From contig NZ_LR734877.1 of NCBI RefSeq assembly GCF_900010725.2, positions 293,412-317,411 of the forward strand: a stretch of DNA of 24,000 nucleotides. Direction: 5' to 3'. The DNA comes from Planktothrix serta PCC 8927. GTDB taxonomy: Bacteria; Cyanobacteriota; Cyanobacteriia; Cyanobacteriales; Microcoleaceae. The translations under genes were made by a program, and so were the position numbers. Positions 7,777 through 24,000 of this stretch are shown piece by piece (position 1 is the first letter of the stretch; each line of letters starts with the position of its first letter). Below the pieces are notes generated by a model. The model was not told where the DNA came from. It saw only the letters and a program-made list of their open reading frames with translations, and searched no databases.

Positions 7777-7817
7777 AACAATATGTTAAAGTATATCAAA
7801 GAGTTTTGAAAGCGACA

Positions 7818-9026
7818 ATGTTTCTGGCATACAAATTCAGAATTTACCCAACAATTGAGCAGCAAATCGCCTTAGCCAAAAGCTTTGGTTGTTGCCGTTG
7901 GTATTGGAATTATGCCTTAAATTTATGTCAAGAAACTTATAAAGCAACAGGAAAAGGGTTATCAAGAACAGCAATTCAAGGATTGTTACCTCAACTGAAA
8001 AAGGAATATCCTTGGTTAAAAGATGCCTATTCTCAATGTTTACAAGTCGTCGCTCTCAATTTATGTACAGCTTACAAAAACTTCTTTGAGAAACGAGCAA
8101 GATTACCTCAATTCAAATCCAAACATAGCAGACAATCAATCAGTTATCCCCAGAGCGTTAAGCTGGAAGGAGATTATCTAAAATTACCCGGCAAAGTTGG
8201 GCTAATTTATTGTCGTCGCCATCGAGAATTTGAGGGGACAATTAAAACCGTTACTATCTCAAAGAATCGTGACGGGAAATACTACGCATCTGTGTTAGTT
8301 GATGACGGCAAGGAAATGCCTGAACCATCAACGAATGGAAAAGCGATTGGGATTGATTTAGGATTAACCCATTTTGCAATTACCAGTGATGGAGACAAAT
8401 ATAGCAACCCCAAACACTTTGCTAAACATCAACGCAACTTAAAACGAAAACAACAGAAATTATCTCGTAAACAAAAGGGAAGTAACAGGAGACAAAAATC
8501 TAGATTAAAAGTCGCTAAAGTCTACGCTAAAATATCTCGGTGTCGAGAAGATTTTCTACACAAACTATCCCGCAAGATAGTCAACGAAAACCAAGTGATT
8601 GCTGTAGAAGATCTAGCAGTTAAGAATCTGGTGAGAAACCCTAAATTAGCCAAGTCAATTAGTGATTGCGGTTGGGGAATGTTCGGCACAATGTTGAAAT
8701 ATAAAGCTGAAAAAGACGGGAAAACCTATATCGAAATTGATCGATTTTTCCCGTCTTCTAAAACTTGTCACGTCTGTCTAAATCAAGTTGGTAGTCTACC
8801 TCTTGATGTTAGAAACTGGAGTTGTGAACATTGTCAAACAACCCATGACCGTGATCTCAACGCTGCGATCAATATCAAAAATGAAGCCTTGCGGATACTG
8901 TCGTTGGGAACCAGCGATACTGCTAGTCTAAGGGGATGTCAGTCATCTGAACAAACTTCTGTTTCTTCAGATGCTATCCCCGTTGATGCTAGAAGCCCAC
9001 ACTTACTCGTAGAGAAGTGTGGGTAG
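7818..9026 (+). CDS. tnpB: TnpB (OrfB) RNA-guided endonuclease, RuvC-like plus zinc finger
   Basis: Begins AYKFRIYPT..EQ as in the OrfB_IS605 N-terminus. RuvC triad intact: IGIDLG (Asp codon 8355-8357), AVEDL, HDRDLNAAINI. CxxC...CxxC zinc finger (CHVC...CEHC). The ORF track starts at TTG 7806; ATG 7818 is preferred. Confidence 0.9.
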   Translation: MFLAYKFRIYPTIEQQIALAKSFGCCRWYWNYALNLCQETYKATGKGLSRTAIQGLLPQLKKEYPWLKDAYSQCLQVVALNLCTAYKNFFEKRARLPQFKSKHSRQSISYPQSVKLEGDYLKLPGKVGLIYCRRHREFEGTIKTVTISKNRDGKYYASVLVDDGKEMPEPSTNGKAIGIDLGLTHFAITSDGDKYSNPKHFAKHQRNLKRKQQKLSRKQKGSNRRQKSRLKVAKVYAKISRCREDFLHKLSRKIVNENQVIAVEDLAVKNLVRNPKLAKSISDCGWGMFGTMLKYKAEKDGKTYIEIDRFFPSSKTCHVCLNQVGSLPLDVRNWSCEHCQTTHDRDLNAAINIKNEALRILSLGTSDTASLRGCQSSEQTSVSSDAIPVDARSPHLLVEKCG

Positions 9027-9046
9027 TTCACGATTTAGATAAATCT
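8830..9046 (+). ncRNA. Predicted omega-RNA (reRNA) of TnpB. Scaffold overlaps the tnpB 3' end and the guide is read from the flank.
   Basis: Placement follows established TnpB biology: the omega-RNA is encoded in the tnpB 3' end and right end, and its guide is the first ~16-20 nt beyond the element. Supported here only by the terminal 9-bp hairpin at 8996-9023. The 5' end is a guess. Confidence 0.3.
8996..9023 (+). repeat. Right-end terminal hairpin (9-bp perfect stem, 10-nt loop) ending at the tnpB stop codon
   Basis: CCCACACTT (8996-9004) and AAGTGTGGG (9015-9023) are perfect reverse complements. The TAG stop is at 9024-9026. Confidence 0.6.
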
Positions 9047-9936
9047 TCAGCTTTGAAAACCGCTTCTTCTACCCGACCGGGTTCACCGAGGCGTTTAGCT
9101 TCTCCATTATTGACTGTAACTAGAACACCTCCGGCATTTCCAGCGACAACAACAACTTTATCCTTTGCTTTCCAACTGCGTTGTGTTCCTCCCTCTAAAG
9201 TTCCTTCAAATTCGGTTTTCCCATCGACTTCAATCAAGACCCAAGAAGCATCTTTAACAACAATTCCCACTTCTACCGTCTTTTCAGTCGTTGATTTGGC
9301 GGAGGGCTTCGTTTCCGAGGCTTTCTCAACCGTTGTTGTCATCGTTGACGTTGGGGTATCCAGGGGAGAAGACAATAAGCGACTTTCGGGTTGAGTTTGG
9401 GACTGAACTACCGCCTGACGGAGTTGAGGATTGACTTCCGAAGGTTTGGGTGTAGCCACCTGTTCACCCGATACACCCGCAAAATTAGTGGTTTTATTCA
9501 GATAAGAAACCCCATTAATGGCACAAATAATTAATAGGATATAAGTTAAGTAAAGATGAGTTGGTCTTAATTGAGGCAGGGCTAAGGAACTGAGTTTAGA
9601 TTTAATTCCGGCTTGTGGAGGTTCAGGAAGGAAAAAGTTAGCGAGTTCTGCTCCATTTAAACCCAAAGCATCTGCATAACGACGGATTAACCCTTGAGTA
9701 TAAACAGGTTCCGGTAGCTGTTCTGTCCTACCTTCTTCTAGTGCTTGTAATAAATGAGAACGAATTCGGGTGTAAGCCGATACCATATCTAAAGATAAGG
9801 AATGATTAATCCGAGTTTCTCGGAGTTGTTCTCCGATTTCTACTAAGCGCTGAATTCGTTCAGCATCATAGGAATTAAGCGTCTGGCGAGGATGTTTAGT
9901 CACTTTAAACGGTAAGACAAATAAATCAGTTTTCAT
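9028..9936 (-). CDS. rodZ: RodZ-like cytoskeleton/morphogenesis protein (N-terminal HTH, one TM, Pro/Thr-rich linker, C-terminal DUF4115-like domain)
   Basis: HTH region LRETRINHSLSLDMVSAYTRIRSHLLQALEEG, TM LYLTYILLIICAINGVSYL, C-terminal beta-rich domain DASWVLIEVDGK...VVVVAGNAGGVLVTVNNGE. This is the RodZ architecture. Confidence 0.75.
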   Translation of the reverse strand: MKTDLFVLPFKVTKHPRQTLNSYDAERIQRLVEIGEQLRETRINHSLSLDMVSAYTRIRSHLLQALEEGRTEQLPEPVYTQGLIRRYADALGLNGAELANFFLPEPPQAGIKSKLSSLALPQLRPTHLYLTYILLIICAINGVSYLNKTTNFAGVSGEQVATPKPSEVNPQLRQAVVQSQTQPESRLLSSPLDTPTSTMTTTVEKASETKPSAKSTTEKTVEVGIVVKDASWVLIEVDGKTEFEGTLEGGTQRSWKAKDKVVVVAGNAGGVLVTVNNGEAKRLGEPGRVEEAVFKAEDLSKS

Positions 9937-19465: not shown

Positions 19466-20662
19466 ATGAATAACTATCGTTTAGAACAAGCTAAAAACAG
19501 AAAACAAGTGTTTGATAATTTTCTGCAAATTGAGCGTAAAGTCGGAGCTAATTCTGAGAAACTTGCCTTTTTAGATCGAGGAATTGAACAGTCTCCCTAT
19601 CAAAATAAGATTCCTGATTATCCTCAATATTTAACCCGCAGACCGTTACAATATAGTTCCTATCCCGTTTTAGGGAAAATTCCTTATATTGATCAACAAG
19701 GTTTAGATTTTCTCCATCCTCAAATTGAGGAAGCTTGTATTAGTCTAGGGAAATTTGAAGCCGGAGAACTCAAGACTATTTGGTTAGGGAGAAATCCGCT
19801 TAAAACCGCCCAATTTTGGAGTTCTACTAAAATTATTCCGGTTCTTCATACTTTAAGTAAAATTGATCAACTCTTTCCTGAAGGAGATATTAAAAATTTA
19901 GACTTAAAAGATCCTGAAAATGCAACCGTTAAGTTTCCTCTGGATTTAGCAATTCAAGATATTGTCAACTATCAAGAAAAGCTGGCTAGTTCTAATGCCT
20001 TAGCCACCCTTTTTAAACGATTTGAAACTCGATCTAATTTAGAAATTTGGTTTCAAAAATTGACAGGAAATTCAACCTTGAAATTCCAAGGAGATTATGG
20101 AGAAGTTTCTGCAATTCAGAATCCAATCATTTTTGATCGGGTTACTCAAAATACCCTAATGAAAGCCGTTACAGACAGTCCTAAAGGTGACAATTTTGTC
20201 TCAGCTTATGATCTGACTCGTTTGATTTCTTTGATAGGATGGCACGCTTATCTACCATCAGGATGTCAGTTGCCAAACCTTCAGCAAAAAACGTTAAATA
20301 GTTTAATTTTAGCGATGGGTCAAGATACGGCTCGTTATGTAGATGTTGCGTTAGAAACCTTGGGAATTGAAGAAGTGATTACGGCTCCAGTTATTCTTTC
20401 TAAAATGGGTTATGGAGATAGTGAAATTCGGCAAACTGTAGAAGCTTGTTATATGGCATTTGTACAGTTTATTGACCCTTTACCCAAAGCTAACGGAAAA
20501 TCGGCTCAATTCCGAACTTTAGCACTCACTTTAAGAGGTGTAATTCCAGTGAAAAATATGGGAGATGTTACTCAAGAAGCATTGGAATTAGATGCTAGAA
20601 TGGCGGCAGAAGTCACGGAAATCATTCGTCGTGTTGTTACAGACGAATTAGATCAACTCTAG
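19466..20662 (+). CDS. Hypothetical protein; divergent class-A-beta-lactamase-like serine hydrolase fold with a ~110-aa N-terminal extension and no signal peptide
   Basis: ATG 19466 is preceded by AAAGAGG; the ORF track starts at GTG 19391. Motifs occur in class A order and spacing: S-S-T-K (19820-19831), S-S-N-A-L-A-T-L (from 19988), S-K-M-G-Y-G-D (K at 20402). The helix VSAYDLTRLISLI lies between them. The assignment is by eye only. Confidence 0.55.
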   Translation: MNNYRLEQAKNRKQVFDNFLQIERKVGANSEKLAFLDRGIEQSPYQNKIPDYPQYLTRRPLQYSSYPVLGKIPYIDQQGLDFLHPQIEEACISLGKFEAGELKTIWLGRNPLKTAQFWSSTKIIPVLHTLSKIDQLFPEGDIKNLDLKDPENATVKFPLDLAIQDIVNYQEKLASSNALATLFKRFETRSNLEIWFQKLTGNSTLKFQGDYGEVSAIQNPIIFDRVTQNTLMKAVTDSPKGDNFVSAYDLTRLISLIGWHAYLPSGCQLPNLQQKTLNSLILAMGQDTARYVDVALETLGIEEVITAPVILSKMGYGDSEIRQTVEACYMAFVQFIDPLPKANGKSAQFRTLALTLRGVIPVKNMGDVTQEALELDARMAAEVTEIIRRVVTDELDQL

Positions 20663-20989
20663 CTACAATAGGAAAATATCTAGTCGGAAAAAGAGAGAGG
20701 ACAGCTAGGGGATGCCATTGTCTTCTCTGTCAAGTTAGAATGGGAATATTAAGAAAACTGCAAAAGCAACAAACTAAGATCGCAGTTTTGGGTGCATTCC
20801 GGTTCCTGAATTGAAGAATCAATCACTGTACTCAGTAAGTGGGTATCCATCAACTTAAAAGAATCAACGATTCTAGGGTGTAAAAGTTTACAGGTACACC
20901 CGAAGCACCGTTGAGGCAGAGTTTTACCTACTGATTTAGAGCCTCTAGTACAGTCATTATTATTAGGAGGAGGAATACACCCAAATTTT

Positions 20990-23900
20990 ATGAAAGAAAT
21001 ACAACAAACTAATCAAGATTCTTTAAAAACTTTAAATCGAATTTTTGCAAGATTTAATGGTGATTTTTCCCTGATTTTAGCTCATTCTAATTATAGAATT
21101 GTTCGAGAAAAAATAATTCAGCAATTACAACAAAAATACCCTAGTGCAATTAAAATTGTTACTCTGGATACCAAGGTAACTAATATTTATAATGCCTTGG
21201 TTGAAGCGGTTGAAGCCGAACAAAATCCACCGCAAGCTTTAATTGTATCTGGTTTAGAGTCAAACGAACAACTGGATACTTTGATTAAGATTATGAACCA
21301 AATGCGGGAGGAATTTCGCCGGAAATTCCACTGTCCTTTGGTGCTGTGGGTGACGGATTCTCTGTTACACGCTTTAATTCGGTTAGCTCCTGATTTTTAT
21401 AGTTGGTCAACAGCGATTATTTTTGAAATTACGACAGAAGATTTACTGCAATTTATTCAACAAACAGCCGATCAAGTTTCTGCTACCGTGTTAGATAGTG
21501 GTGCGGGTATTTTTTTAACGAATTCTTGCTTAAATTTAGAGTTAGGTTCTCCCTTAAGAGAAGAATTAGAAGTAGCTCGTCAAGAATTACAGAAACGAGG
21601 AGAACTATTAGGAACTGAACTAGGTGCGGGTTTAGAATTTGTATTGGGTCGAGTTTCTGATCATTCTAACCATATTGCGTTACAACATTATGAACGTAGC
21701 TTAGAACTTTGGCAACAAACAAATAATTTAATTCGCTATAGTCAATTATTATTTTATGTCGGATTTTGGTGGCACAGTTATGGAATTTTACATCCCACTG
21801 AAAAGCCATCTGCTTATCATCAGGCTAAAAGTTATTATACTCAATCCATTCAAACCTTTAAACGAGCAAACCGTTGGGATTTAGTGGCTAAGTTTATTAA
21901 TGCGTTGGCGGATGTTTTGTTTGGACTAAAAGAATGGCAAGAATTGGAAAAAGTGGCGAAGGAATCGATTCATTATAATCAAATTTATGCTTATCCTTTT
22001 CGAGAAGCGCGGGGATATCATTTTTTAGCTGAAGTTGCTTTAGCAAAAGCTTCCCCCTATGAAGCAAAAACTTTAGCAGAAAAGGCTCAAAATTTATTAA
22101 CTAAAACCTTATCAAATTATCATCCCCAAACCTCTGATGAACAGTTAATTTTAGATTGGGAGACTTCCTATCATCAGGGATGGTATTTGGTGACTCTGGC
22201 TCAAGCACATCAACAACTACACCAATATCAAGAGGCGATTAAAATTCTAGAAAAAGCGAAAGCTCGCTCCAAACCACATTATGACCCAGAACTTTATATT
22301 CGGATTTTACAACTTTTACAGGATTTATATTTCCAAAAAGGCGAATATTTAATGGCTTATGAAATTAAGCAAAAACGTCGAGAAATTGAGCAACAATTTA
22401 GATTAAGAGCCTTTATCGGAGCCGGACGACTCGGACATATTCAAAGCATTAATAATCCTAGTTTACCTCCAATTAACCATACTGAAACCATTAATCCTGA
22501 AATTACCGCGTCTGGTCGTTTATCGGTTGTCAATTGGTTGGGTGAACGCATTAGACGCAATGATTGTCGGTTAACGGTGGTTTATGGACAATCAGGAGTC
22601 GGTAAAAGTTCGATTTTGCAAGCTGGTTTTATTCCAGAGTTACAAAAAACTGCCATTGATACTCGTCACTTTATCCCGGTATTACTTCAAGTTTATACGA
22701 ACTTGAATCAGGAGTTTTCTCGTGCTTTAGCTAAAGGAATTAGAGAGGTTAGCAATATTGAATTAAACTCTTCTGAACTGAATAATCAAGAAGTGATTTT
22801 AGAACAAATTAGAACCTTAGTTAATCAAAATTTCTGGGTTGTGATTATTTTTGATCAGTTTGAGGAATTTTTCTTTGCTTGTAAAGAGAATCAACAACGA
22901 CAAAACTGTTATCAATTTATTAAAGATTGTTTAAATATTCCCTATGTTAAAATTGTTTTATCTTTGCGAGAGGATTATTTACATTATTTATTAGAATGTA
23001 CTCGTCAAGGTTATTTAGAGATTATTGGGAATAATATTTTAGATCGCAATATTTTGGCTTATATTGGGAATTTTACACGGGAAGAAGCCAAGTCTGTGAT
23101 TCAGAGTTTAACGGAAAGGACGCAATTTGTTCTTGAACCTGCTCTAATTCATCAATTAGTTGAAGATTTAGCAGAAGATTTAGGAGAAATTCGACCGATA
23201 GAATTACAAGTTGTGGGTTCTCAGTTACAAGCTCAAAAAATTACCACGTTAAAACAATATCAACAAGCGGGACAAAAAAAACAGTTAGTTGAAGACTATT
23301 TAGATGAAGTGATTCGAGATTGTGGTTTAAGCAATAAAAATTTGGCGGAATTAGTGCTTTATTTACTAACGGATGAAAATAATACTCGTCCCTTAAAAAC
23401 TCGTGCTGATTTAGTTCGAGAAATTAAAGAATTAGCAAACTATTTTGAAAATATTAATGAAAATTTAGATACTGTTCTGAAGATTTTTGTCCTTTCTGGT
23501 TTAGTTTTTATTTTACCAGAAATTCCGATGGAACGGTATCAACTGGTACATGATTATTTAGTCGGTTTAATTCGTCAAAATCGTAGTTCTGACCTGCTAA
23601 AAGAGTTAGAAGAAACTCGAAAAAAAAGTCAACAACTAGAATTAGACAAACAAAAACTTTTGCGACAACAATTTTTGAGCTTGATTGCATTTTTATTATT
23701 TTTAATAATTTCGTCTTCTTCTTTTCTGTTTTGGCGAATTAATGATTTAAAAACCAAAAAATCAGAGTTGATTTTGGCTCATGAAAATACTAAATATACG
23801 GCTCTGGTCAATGAAAATAATCAGCTTGATGCTTTATTAACACTTATCATTGCGGGTAAACTTTTAAAACCTGATAGTTATAAATCTTCTATTTACCAAG

Positions 23901-24000
23901 AAACTTTGAGTAAATTAGGTATCGCCACTCAAATCATTCAAGAACAAAATATTTTAGATGGACATGAAAAAAATAGTGTTTTAAGTGTGGCTGTCAGTCC
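20990..24000 (+). CDS. Large multidomain STAND-type P-loop NTPase (N-terminal alpha/beta module, TPR-like repeats, NTPase, one TM helix, start of WD40 repeats); 3'-partial, runs off the window
   Basis: My own translation: open from ATG 20990 (the in-frame stop TGA at 20912-20914 closes the frame upstream; GGAGGAGGA at 20966-20974) for 1003 codons to the window edge. Walker A GQSGVGKSS at 22586-22612. Walker B VVIIFDQFEE at 22838-22867. TM FLSLIAFLLFLIISSSSFLFW at 23672-23734. WD40-like ILDGHEKNSVLSVAVS from 23951. Not in the supplied ORF track. Confidence 0.85.
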   Translation, partial: MKEIQQTNQDSLKTLNRIFARFNGDFSLILAHSNYRIVREKIIQQLQQKYPSAIKIVTLDTKVTNIYNALVEAVEAEQNPPQALIVSGLESNEQLDTLIKIMNQMREEFRRKFHCPLVLWVTDSLLHALIRLAPDFYSWSTAIIFEITTEDLLQFIQQTADQVSATVLDSGAGIFLTNSCLNLELGSPLREELEVARQELQKRGELLGTELGAGLEFVLGRVSDHSNHIALQHYERSLELWQQTNNLIRYSQLLFYVGFWWHSYGILHPTEKPSAYHQAKSYYTQSIQTFKRANRWDLVAKFINALADVLFGLKEWQELEKVAKESIHYNQIYAYPFREARGYHFLAEVALAKASPYEAKTLAEKAQNLLTKTLSNYHPQTSDEQLILDWETSYHQGWYLVTLAQAHQQLHQYQEAIKILEKAKARSKPHYDPELYIRILQLLQDLYFQKGEYLMAYEIKQKRREIEQQFRLRAFIGAGRLGHIQSINNPSLPPINHTETINPEITASGRLSVVNWLGERIRRNDCRLTVVYGQSGVGKSSILQAGFIPELQKTAIDTRHFIPVLLQVYTNLNQEFSRALAKGIREVSNIELNSSELNNQEVILEQIRTLVNQNFWVVIIFDQFEEFFFACKENQQRQNCYQFIKDCLNIPYVKIVLSLREDYLHYLLECTRQGYLEIIGNNILDRNILAYIGNFTREEAKSVIQSLTERTQFVLEPALIHQLVEDLAEDLGEIRPIELQVVGSQLQAQKITTLKQYQQAGQKKQLVEDYLDEVIRDCGLSNKNLAELVLYLLTDENNTRPLKTRADLVREIKELANYFENINENLDTVLKIFVLSGLVFILPEIPMERYQLVHDYLVGLIRQNRSSDLLKELEETRKKSQQLELDKQKLLRQQFLSLIAFLLFLIISSSSFLFWRINDLKTKKSELILAHENTKYTALVNENNQLDALLTLIIAGKLLKPDSYKSSIYQETLSKLGIATQIIQEQNILDGHEKNSVLSVAVS

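Follow-up and report, generated by a model that had tools for sequence, protein, structure and literature searches.

The 3′ end of a 24,000-nucleotide stretch of the Planktothrix serta PCC 8927 genome (contig NZ_LR734877.1, positions 293,412 to 317,411 of the forward strand; this whole stretch is referred to as the window) carries the first part of a large gene encoding a STAND-type NTPase, which is the subject of this analysis. A preliminary inspection based on the letters alone (the sequence-only reading) had proposed here an open reading frame (ORF) of more than 1000 codons missing from the program-made ORF list. Direct translation confirmed it, as 1003 stop-free codons run from the ATG at 20990 (+) up to the window edge at 24000; running off the window is the sole cause of its omission. 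Along its entire length, the translated sequence agrees at 100% identity with residues 1-1003 of P0001, and the complete protein is thus given by this 1621-aa entry from Planktothrix serta PCC 8927, labelled "WD-40 repeat protein" in NCBI/UniRef. Judging from the length of P0001, the gene should end near 25855, ~1.85 kb past the window edge. All the sequence features listed by the sequence-only reading, i.e. the alpha/beta N-terminal module, TPR-like repeats, Walker A and B motifs, hydrophobic helix and WD40 opening, are present in the following order:

20965-20974 (+): Shine-Dalgarno-like purine-rich run AGGAGGAGGA, 16-25 nt 5′ of the ATG (read from the sequence)
20990-24000 (+): 5′ part of the gene, the first 62%, 3011 nt, 1003 of 1621 codons (open frame and identity to P0001)
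20990-21484 (+): N-terminal module (N-module), predicted AAA+-like alpha/beta domain without a P-loop, aa 1-165 (AlphaFold2 model, Foldseek, alignment A1)
21485-21550 (+): conserved linker VLDxGAGIFLxN..., aa 166-187 (near-invariant columns in alignment A3)
21551-22399 (+): TPR superhelix of 13 helices, similar to LGN/Pins and kinesin light chain, aa 188-470 (Pfam, AlphaFold2, Foldseek)
22514-23563 (+): nSTAND1 NTPase module, aa 509-858 (PF20703)
22586-22612 (+): Walker A, GQSGVGKSS, aa 533-541 (G-S-G-V-G-K-S-S columns near-invariant in A3)
22838-22867 (+): Walker B, VVIIFDQFEE, aa 617-626 (I-F-D-Q-F-E-E columns near-invariant in A3)
23585-23671 (+): Lys/Arg-rich, coiled-coil-like juxtamembrane segment, predicted to lie on the cytoplasmic side, aa 866-894
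23672-23734 (+): predicted transmembrane (TM) helix FLSLIAFLLFLIISSSSFLFW, aa 895-915 (mean Kyte-Doolittle hydropathy 2.38 over 19 residues)
23735-23956 (+): predicted periplasmic helical linker between the TM helix and the first WD40 blade, aa 916-989
23957-24000 (+): start of the first WD40 blade, from aa 990; the array continues beyond the window to ~aa 1590

The 327-bp gap 5′ of the ORF contains no terminator-like site, and its promoter-like matches did not rise above shuffled controls. A protein similarity search with the window translation returned 1062 homologues at E ≤ 1e-10, which places the reality of the ORF far beyond chance. About 100 of the listed homologues, with a length of ~1600 aa, cover 98-100% of the query at 42-51% identity, and come from Nostoc, Calothrix, Moorena, Symploca, Lyngbya, Limnoraphis, Limnospira and other genera. 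Database labels vary across the family: "WD40 repeat", "sugar-binding", "hypothetical" and "nSTAND1 domain-containing NTPase".

The central part of the protein was assigned to the nSTAND1 clade, as the sequence-only reading had anticipated. PF20703 matches at E = 2.3e-33 (116.8 bits versus a cut-off of 27.1; profile positions 18-341 of 379), both Walker motifs are intact, and superstructure repeats follow on the C-terminal side (14 WD40 blades in P0001). The near-invariance of both motifs within the family leads us to predict an active NTPase. Two unusual homologues were noticed in which the N-module, TPR and nSTAND1 regions are followed by a further large domain: a complete phosphoenolpyruvate carboxylase in P0305 (1932 aa), possibly an assembly or gene-call artefact, and a second STAND module (NACHT and NCH2) in P0259 (1591 aa).

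The helical repeats on the N-terminal side of the NTPase are indeed TPRs. Pfam TPR_12 scores 46.4 bits against a cut-off of 30.1 and is accompanied by TPR_10 and a weak TPR_MalT match, all N-terminal to the NTPase. The AlphaFold2 model of aa 1-505 (pLDDT 87) shows the N-module followed by 13 TPR helices (aa 188-469), i.e. the helical-hairpin superhelix of a TPR repeat protein. The best Foldseek matches of this region are the peptide-binding TPRs of LGN/Pins, kinesin light chain (KLC) and Rap (E ~2e-7). On the basis of the model, the N-terminal third of the protein looks like a platform for protein-protein interaction.

The N-module required a separate analysis, since aa 1-170 gave no Pfam, NCBIfam, PDB-sequence or PADLOC match. 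Alignment A1, composed of window aa 1-175 and 66 homologues, reveals a compact, well-conserved domain of ~150 aa with the consensus motifs FSLIL-x2-CN, ALMVxGLES, NxVREEFR, FPLVLWV-x-D and RLAPDFxSW (FSLILAHSN, ALIVSGLES, NQMREEFR, PLVLWVTD and RLAPDFYSW in the window protein) and with invariant F26, L30, N103, R106, P116 and D135. AlphaFold2 modelled it from A1 with pLDDT 90.8 and pTM 0.81 as a five-stranded alpha/beta domain, in the order helix-b1-a1-b2-a2-b3-a3-b4-a4-b5-helix. The top 50 Foldseek matches in the PDB are almost exclusively AAA+ cores (best E = 4.7e-5, TMq 0.62), including Rad17/RFC, Elg1-RFC, ORC subunits, TnsC, ClpC/Hsp104, RuvB, Hda and DnaC, and the model has the ASCE alpha/beta core fold of AAA+ ATPases. 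Strand 1 (FSLILA, aa 27-32) is followed by a three-residue loop H-S-N (consensus x-C-N) and then by helix 36-49; the Walker A motif expected between strand 1 and helix 1 is absent, GxxxxGK[ST] occurring in no family member in A1. The alpha/beta architecture without a P-loop, which had been read from the letters, is therefore reproduced by the model and by the motif search. R131 (in RLAPDF), between helix 4 and strand 5, might correspond to an arginine finger, which in AAA+ proteins sits roughly at this site.

At the sequence level, a profile search of PDB chains with the N-module gave a best E of 0.12, i.e. no detectable relation. Three proposals of its origin were rejected or found no support: that it is a decayed duplicate of the nucleotide-binding domain of the protein's own nSTAND1 (hhalign probability 1.3%), that it is related to the nucleotide-binding domain of NTP450, an NTPase of related loci described below (0.9%), and that N-module and TPRs together form a decayed tandem STAND, as the Foldseek results for aa 1-505 are dominated by plain TPR proteins and the solved TPR-STAND 6mfv ranks only 33rd (TMq 0.30). 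Because its modelled fold is that of AAA+ proteins without Walker A, and because it shows no detectable sequence relation to these NTPases, we call the N-module a P-loop-less AAA+-like domain, a putative pseudo-NTPase, rather than an enzyme-type effector.

This bears on the first alternative, raised by the sequence-only reading, in which the protein is an Avs/NLR-type antiphage or cell-death receptor: the WD40 domain senses phage, nSTAND1 oligomerises, and the N-module kills or recruits a killer. The layout of a STAND NTPase with a repeat sensor speaks for it, and so does the origin of the nSTAND1 clade, whose definition came from conflict systems predicted in multicellular bacteria. However, the effector assignment considered for the N-module did not hold: it has a non-catalytic pseudo-NTPase fold, and searches of aa 1-170 against Pfam, NCBIfam, PDB sequences and PADLOC matched no nuclease, protease, TIR, SIR2 or other effector family.

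The distribution of the N-module points in the same direction. A profile search of 1.84 billion representative proteins found 2144 clusters at E ≤ 0.001 (599 at E ≤ 1e-30), which bears out the statement of the sequence-only reading that this N-terminus recurs on other large cyanobacterial proteins, and the module nearly always occupies the extreme N-terminus. Architectures were classified for the 134 best matches with hidden Markov models derived from the individual regions of the window protein. All long proteins among them have the N-module-TPR-nSTAND1 triad, many matches are stand-alone proteins of 150-200 aa (typically ~160 aa), and P0241 carries two N-modules in tandem. The census of head swaps suggested by the sequence-only reading found no exchange with CHAT, TIR, caspase-like or nuclease heads in these 134 proteins, which is a further point against the immune alternative. 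Given the constant triad, the stand-alone copies and the tandem double module, the N-module behaves like an adaptor and not like an effector. Four apparent stand-alone copies from Planktothrix were discarded: P0124 is an orthologue fragment in a frameshift-ridden assembly, and P0121-P0123, located on 1.9-3.5 kb contigs, are probably orthologue fragments as well.

A second, smaller conserved pairing of the module was also observed. Some stand-alone N-module genes (164-165 aa) are followed ~120 bp on by an RlaP-type nucleotidyltransferase gene (PF10127, ~255 aa), and this was seen for two different module proteins in different surroundings (L005-L009, 10001-11381; L015-L017, about 8001-9389).

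The part of the protein behind the NTPase concerns its topology. The sequence-only reading had noticed a single TM helix that would place the WD40 array across the membrane from the NTPase, and the family data agree with both statements. A hydrophobic helix (mean hydropathy ≥1.6) lies 360-380 residues past Walker A in 103 of the 117 scored homologues; its position is conserved and its sequence is not, a drift which fits a lipid-facing span. In the 15 residues flanking the helix, Lys and Arg average 5.0 upstream versus 2.9 downstream across the family, with an upstream excess in 81 homologues and the reverse in 9. Cysteine makes up 0.35% of the residues after the TM position (modal count 2) in 137 TM-containing members versus 1.25% in 18 TM-less ones (Mann-Whitney p = 2e-10), while in the N-terminal part the values are about equal (1.21% and 1.20%, respectively).

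The sensor itself is exchangeable. Only the first WD40 blade begins inside the window; full-length P0001, for which precomputed WD40 Pfam families are available, contains 14 blades with xxLW motifs, which would suffice for two 7-bladed propellers. In some members, WD40 gives way to CHASE2, a domain well known as an extracytoplasmic sensor, with the TM helix in the same position after nSTAND1 and 1-3 further hydrophobic segments after CHASE2. In others, the TM helix is the same but is followed by long arrays of TPRs, whose 500-720 residues contain only one Cys.

Since four independent lines, i.e. hydropathy, the positive-inside rule, Cys depletion and the CHASE2/TPR exchange, agree, the WD40 array is most likely periplasmic and the NTPase cytoplasmic. 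The positionally conserved ~20-residue span and the compartment signatures are those of a single-pass receptor with N-in/C-out orientation. The family design of nSTAND1, then a TM helix, then an extracytoplasmic sensor, with WD40 across the membrane, is what we infer from these data, and it appears well supported.

The opposite view would be that the hydrophobic segment does not span the membrane and that the protein lies entirely in the cytosol, as a soluble STAND of the Apaf-1 type with WD40 sensors. It would explain why there is no signal peptide, why the span lies ~900 residues into the chain, which is unusual for a signal anchor, and why ~12% of homologues lack the segment. We consider it highly improbable: hydropathy reaches 2.38 over 19 residues at a position that is kept while the sequence drifts, the positive-inside bias is 81 versus 9, the Cys depletion is confined to the post-TM part of TM-containing members, and at this very site WD40 is exchanged for CHASE2 together with the TM helices that canonically flank it.

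The TM-less homologues (P0020, P0030, P0047, P0048, P0052, P0059, P0062, P0081, P0083, P0098, P0113 and others) have 3-4 times more cysteine in their WD40 arrays and often occur in genomes that also hold TM-containing copies. From their sequences they look like cytosolic-sensor paralogues of the same machine. A conserved C-terminal tail, GCxxLxDYLKxNPNVxxSDRxLC (P0001 aa 1591-1621, A3), with two near-invariant Cys, is found in both TM-containing and TM-less members. In P0001 this pair, located after the propellers (C1593 and C1614), provides the sole cysteines past the TM helix; as TM-less paralogues carry it too, it was dropped as proof of periplasmic location.

The surroundings of the gene were examined in relatives by a locus scan with six modules as queries and one genome per species, which confirmed at least 543 loci; 80 of them were retained. 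Every record with a name was cyanobacterial save a few "uncultured bacterium" metagenome-assembled genomes (MAGs) and one MAG labelled Sulfitobacter. A P-loop NTPase gene of ~450 aa, which we named NTP450, recurs in these loci. In 66 of the 76 loci whose upstream sequence was long enough, it lies directly 5′, on the same strand, of a gene starting with the N-module. The gene 3′ of it usually encodes a full N-module-TPR-nSTAND1-TM-WD40 protein of 900-2013 aa; in four loci (L001-L003 and L013) a pair of NTP450 and a stand-alone module is located just 5′ of a full-length family member. The NTP450 stop overlaps the start of the stand-alone N-module by 4 bp, and 16 NTP450/N-module gene pairs in all show a 4-bp overlap. 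The two are also found fused, in a 687-aa ORF of L072 and in P0315.

NTP450 has a Walker A motif, FTGHIGCGKST, and a Walker B-like VVIVDNLD. Four of the five copies scanned pass the Pfam KAP_NTPase threshold of 20 with 22-32 bits, and the fusion protein scores 19.2. As the two genes are tightly linked, translationally coupled and in some cases fused, N-module and NTP450 are likely to interact physically or functionally. Dead AAA+ subunits are commonly structural partners of live ones, as in the clamp-loader delta/delta' and ORC2/3, and we conjecture that the N-module might dock as a pseudo-protomer on an active NTPase.

The most elaborate arrangement was seen in Lyngbya aestuarii (L013, 5050-16498), where two NTP450 genes, a stand-alone N-module, a 79-aa ORF and a 1605-aa full-length receptor lie on one strand, and the cluster ends with a further TPR-nSTAND1 gene, which a third NTP450 overlaps. 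L001-L003 likewise show NTP450, module, ~80-aa ORF and receptor in this order.

The Planktothrix serta locus is organised differently. No NTP450 was found in six frames of the window (hmmsearch --max, nothing better than E = 0.71), and the upstream 423/398-aa ORF, considered as a divergent NTP450, was rejected after BLASTP and hmmsearch --max found nothing. The genes 5′ of the receptor gene are ctaA/ctaB, ctaCDE, an M48 peptidase, RodZ, TnpB and signalling genes, and no known defence genes were found among the upstream window ORFs scanned. In related genomes, the following arrangements were seen:

P. pseudagardhii (L010): gene 77-79% identical, after ctaCDE
P. rubescens (L011): gene 77-79% identical, after ctaCDE
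Planktothrix-like MAG (L012): same place, in an assembly full of frameshifts
Capilliphycus salinus (L098): 50%-identical orthologue in the same place, dnaG downstream
Limnospira (L099): dnaG downstream

The gene dnaG lies 3′ of the receptor gene in three lineages. Because the post-ctaCDE place is the same across Planktothrix and Capilliphycus, the gene is, judging from synteny, vertically inherited in a stable chromosomal position, and the upstream synteny proved stable across both genera. The receptor gene evolves faster than its neighbours, with ~78% identity between Planktothrix loci versus 92-98% for COX1 and COX3. Its most conserved part is nSTAND1 (~88%). The linker (aa 916-989) is the least conserved: of the five closest Planktothrix-type homologues, four share 52-54% identity with it and P0007 shares 72%, and conservation is also low in the N-module (71-75%) and the second propeller (69-77%).

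These data bear on two alternatives. For the immune one, the divergence (78% versus 92-98% identity) is a point in favour, together with the modular C-terminal sensor, which swaps, and the multiple paralogues present in several genomes (e.g. P0009 and P0097 on one Capilliphycus chromosome). On the other hand, the neighbours are housekeeping genes in a place that is stable across genera, the window locus has neither a defence-model match nor a defence island of the kind expected of Avs systems, and PADLOC gave only a weak, generic mad3 match for the big protein (E = 0.0046) and none for the module. The predicted periplasmic sensor is also unlike the known cytosolic Avs sensors. An EACC1 two-gene conflict system, in some of which nSTAND1 occurs and which pairs a 5′ gene for the small TM domain EACC1 with a 3′ gene bearing an N-terminal caspase, was rejected, as the components differ: there is no caspase head, and the upstream ORF encodes a 398-aa protein without a Pfam match. 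An immune or cell-death role of the antiphage kind put forward by the sequence-only reading is not supported by these data and is in our judgement quite improbable.

The second alternative is a non-immune factor of envelope signalling or assembly in filamentous cyanobacteria, serving e.g. filament integrity, motility or septal structures. Such a protein might report the state of the periplasm or cell wall inward, or its ATP-driven oligomerisation might organise a periplasmic WD40 scaffold (inside-out). This role would agree with a gene that is inherited vertically in one place in Planktothrix, in the Planktothrix-like MAG and in Capilliphycus, and that in three lineages has dnaG 3′ of it. The named homologues and loci are cyanobacterial and mostly filamentous, apart from the few MAGs mentioned above, CHASE2, the sensor used instead of WD40, typically serves the transduction of environmental signals, and no effector was found. 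However, no link to any envelope pathway was found; the adjacent ORF of a cell-wall-associated family proved to be a companion of the cta operon (see below). Fast divergence and many Nostocales paralogues are unusual for a housekeeping factor, and a KAP-like second NTPase as partner is more reminiscent of conflict systems. We regard an envelope factor as possible, though on the unlikely side.

Our preferred reading, which we hold with slightly better than even confidence, is a single-pass membrane STAND receptor with a cytoplasmic N-terminus, outside-in signalling and an adaptor head. From the N-terminus it would consist of the pseudo-AAA+ N-module, TPR superhelix, nSTAND1, basic coil, TM helix, periplasmic linker, 14 WD40 blades and Cys-pair tail. 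A periplasmic or cell-envelope ligand would bind the WD40 propellers, and the signal would cross via the single TM helix and the basic coil to nSTAND1. STAND proteins generally exchange nucleotide and oligomerise; nSTAND1 would likewise swap nucleotide and oligomerise within the membrane plane. This would cluster the heads formed by the TPRs and the pseudo-ATPase, which would then recruit a downstream protein or activate it; in most relatives this protein is very probably the NTP450 encoded directly 5′. The Planktothrix/Capilliphycus lineage has no adjacent NTP450, and the partner would be encoded elsewhere or be dispensable. This scheme builds on the domain identities, N-module fold, TM conservation, compartment signatures, sensor modularity and partner linkage in relatives, all documented above; we infer the signalling direction, oligomerisation, N-module-NTP450 contact and biological output from this anatomy and from general STAND behaviour.

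Several observations weigh against this receptor model. No output domain was identified in the protein, and no NTP450 lies near the gene in the window or in the syntenic loci L010, L011, L098 and L099. The 80 loci were fetched with modules of one subfamily, and 66/76 (87%) may overstate the family-wide linkage. The N-module has no profile-profile relation to NTP450 or nSTAND1 (hhalign probability ≤1.3%). The TM prediction rests on hydropathy and indirect signatures, and the ~12% of homologues without a TM helix imply that membrane insertion is not essential to the core machinery.

The protein was compared with several known systems. The nSTAND1 clade (PF20703) was named by Kaur, Iyer, Burroughs and Aravind (eLife 2021, PMC8195603). 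Our protein resembles its members in that the NTPase aligns with almost all of the profile, has both Walker motifs intact, is followed by superstructure repeats and occurs in multicellular cyanobacteria. In the systems described, however, EADs or enzymatic effectors are found at the N-terminus and FGS/lectin sensors at the C-terminus, whereas the window protein has a P-loop-less AAA+-like head with TPRs, a TM helix after the NTPase and a predicted extracytoplasmic sensor (WD40, CHASE2 or TPR in the family). The closest bacterial relatives of Apaf-1 are also cyanobacterial (Nature 2026, PMC13581612), and in these Apaf-1-like WD40 STANDs the NTPase likewise precedes tandem WD40 propellers, the presumed ligand sensor. 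These are soluble proteins whose propellers lie in the cytosol and whose heads are of the caspase or CARD type; the window protein, on the other hand, belongs to nSTAND1 and not to the AP-ATPase clade, has a predicted membrane span before the propellers and lacks a protease head.

Avs antiviral STANDs share the scheme of head, STAND NTPase and repeat sensor. The window protein differs from them by the absence of an effector head, of a PADLOC Avs match and of a defence-island context, and by its predicted periplasmic sensor. The dead AAA+ subunits (clamp-loader delta/delta', ORC2/ORC3, Rad17-RFC) are the best structural matches of the N-module, having an AAA+ core without Walker A nucleotide binding; unlike them, the N-module is a single domain fused to TPRs, outside any known ring and with no detectable sequence relation.

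Most of the NTP450 copies scanned score above the KAP_NTPase threshold, and in conflict systems a KAP NTPase can stand in for a STAND. NTP450, in contrast, is a small, soluble-looking separate protein paired with a STAND instead of replacing it, and has no strong defence-model match. Finally, CHASE2- or PASTA/WD40-type single-pass receptors have an extracytoplasmic sensor, one TM helix and a cytoplasmic signalling enzyme, and CHASE2 is used within our family; the window protein has a STAND NTPase and an adaptor platform in place of a kinase or cyclase, and its predicted cytoplasmic part of ~890 aa precedes the TM helix. A literature search of incomplete coverage turned up no account of the N-module or its pairing with NTP450, nor of any nSTAND1 protein that spans the membrane and carries periplasmic WD40, CHASE2 or TPR sensors. 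We rate the NTPase clade as known, the receptor architecture around it as undescribed and the adaptor domain as uncatalogued.

To our knowledge, the bacterial STAND/NLR-like proteins studied so far are cytosolic sensors. The present family, with more than 2000 clusters essentially restricted to cyanobacteria, is predicted to hold an NTPase switch inside and a repeat sensor outside the membrane. If this topology is true, STAND signalling extends to extracytoplasmic cues, and the family offers a testable model of how filamentous cyanobacteria monitor their envelope or phages. The definition of an uncatalogued P-loop-less AAA+-like domain, together with a linked NTPase backed by fusions, provides a concrete protein-protein interaction hypothesis, and, as Planktothrix forms blooms, a conserved surface receptor would be of ecological interest. 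What goes beyond anatomy and linkage stays conditional, the more so for this Planktothrix gene, which has no adjacent NTP450 partner.

A more far-reaching suggestion, which must be treated as an unlikely speculation, is that the family represents an NLR surveying the cell surface, in which an outward sensor signals to a KAP-like NTPase via a pseudo-ATPase docking domain. Its cues might be the machinery by which phages adsorb or inject, damage to the envelope, or signals sent by adjacent cells of a filament. If true, a surface pattern-recognition receptor and intracellular NLR logic would be united in one polypeptide.

The ORF directly 5′ of the receptor gene deserves a short description. It encodes 398 aa from the probable start M26 (19466-20662, +), while the program list starts it at GTG 19391 (423 aa), and it has no Pfam or NCBIfam match. 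It adjoins the receptor gene in Planktothrix and Capilliphycus (53% identity); in Microcoleus vaginatus its homologue follows ctaCDE without any STAND gene, and for this reason it was rejected as a STAND partner. It is best described, from its gene neighbourhoods, as a conserved companion of the cytochrome oxidase (cta) operon. Its family has at least 714 cyanobacterial members, some of them fused to SLH (PF00395) or PG_binding_1 (PF01471), which suggests association with the cell wall. By eye only, SSTK, SSN and KMG motifs were noticed in the order of serine beta-lactamases/PBPs.

Mobile elements occur in the vicinity. Within the window, at 7806-9026 (+), lies an apparently intact 406-aa IS605-family OrfB/TnpB gene with HTH_OrfB_IS605, OrfB_IS605 and Cas12f1-like TNB domains, and no Y1 transposase ORF was found among its scanned neighbours. 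Group II intron reverse transcriptase genes (RVT_N/RVT_1/GIIM/HNH) are absent from the corresponding places in the window; they were found near the locus in P. rubescens (L011, 2839-6431), where one splits ctaC, and in P. pseudagardhii (L010, 7133-8866 and 18244-19971), where another is inserted between the 422-aa ORF and the receptor gene.

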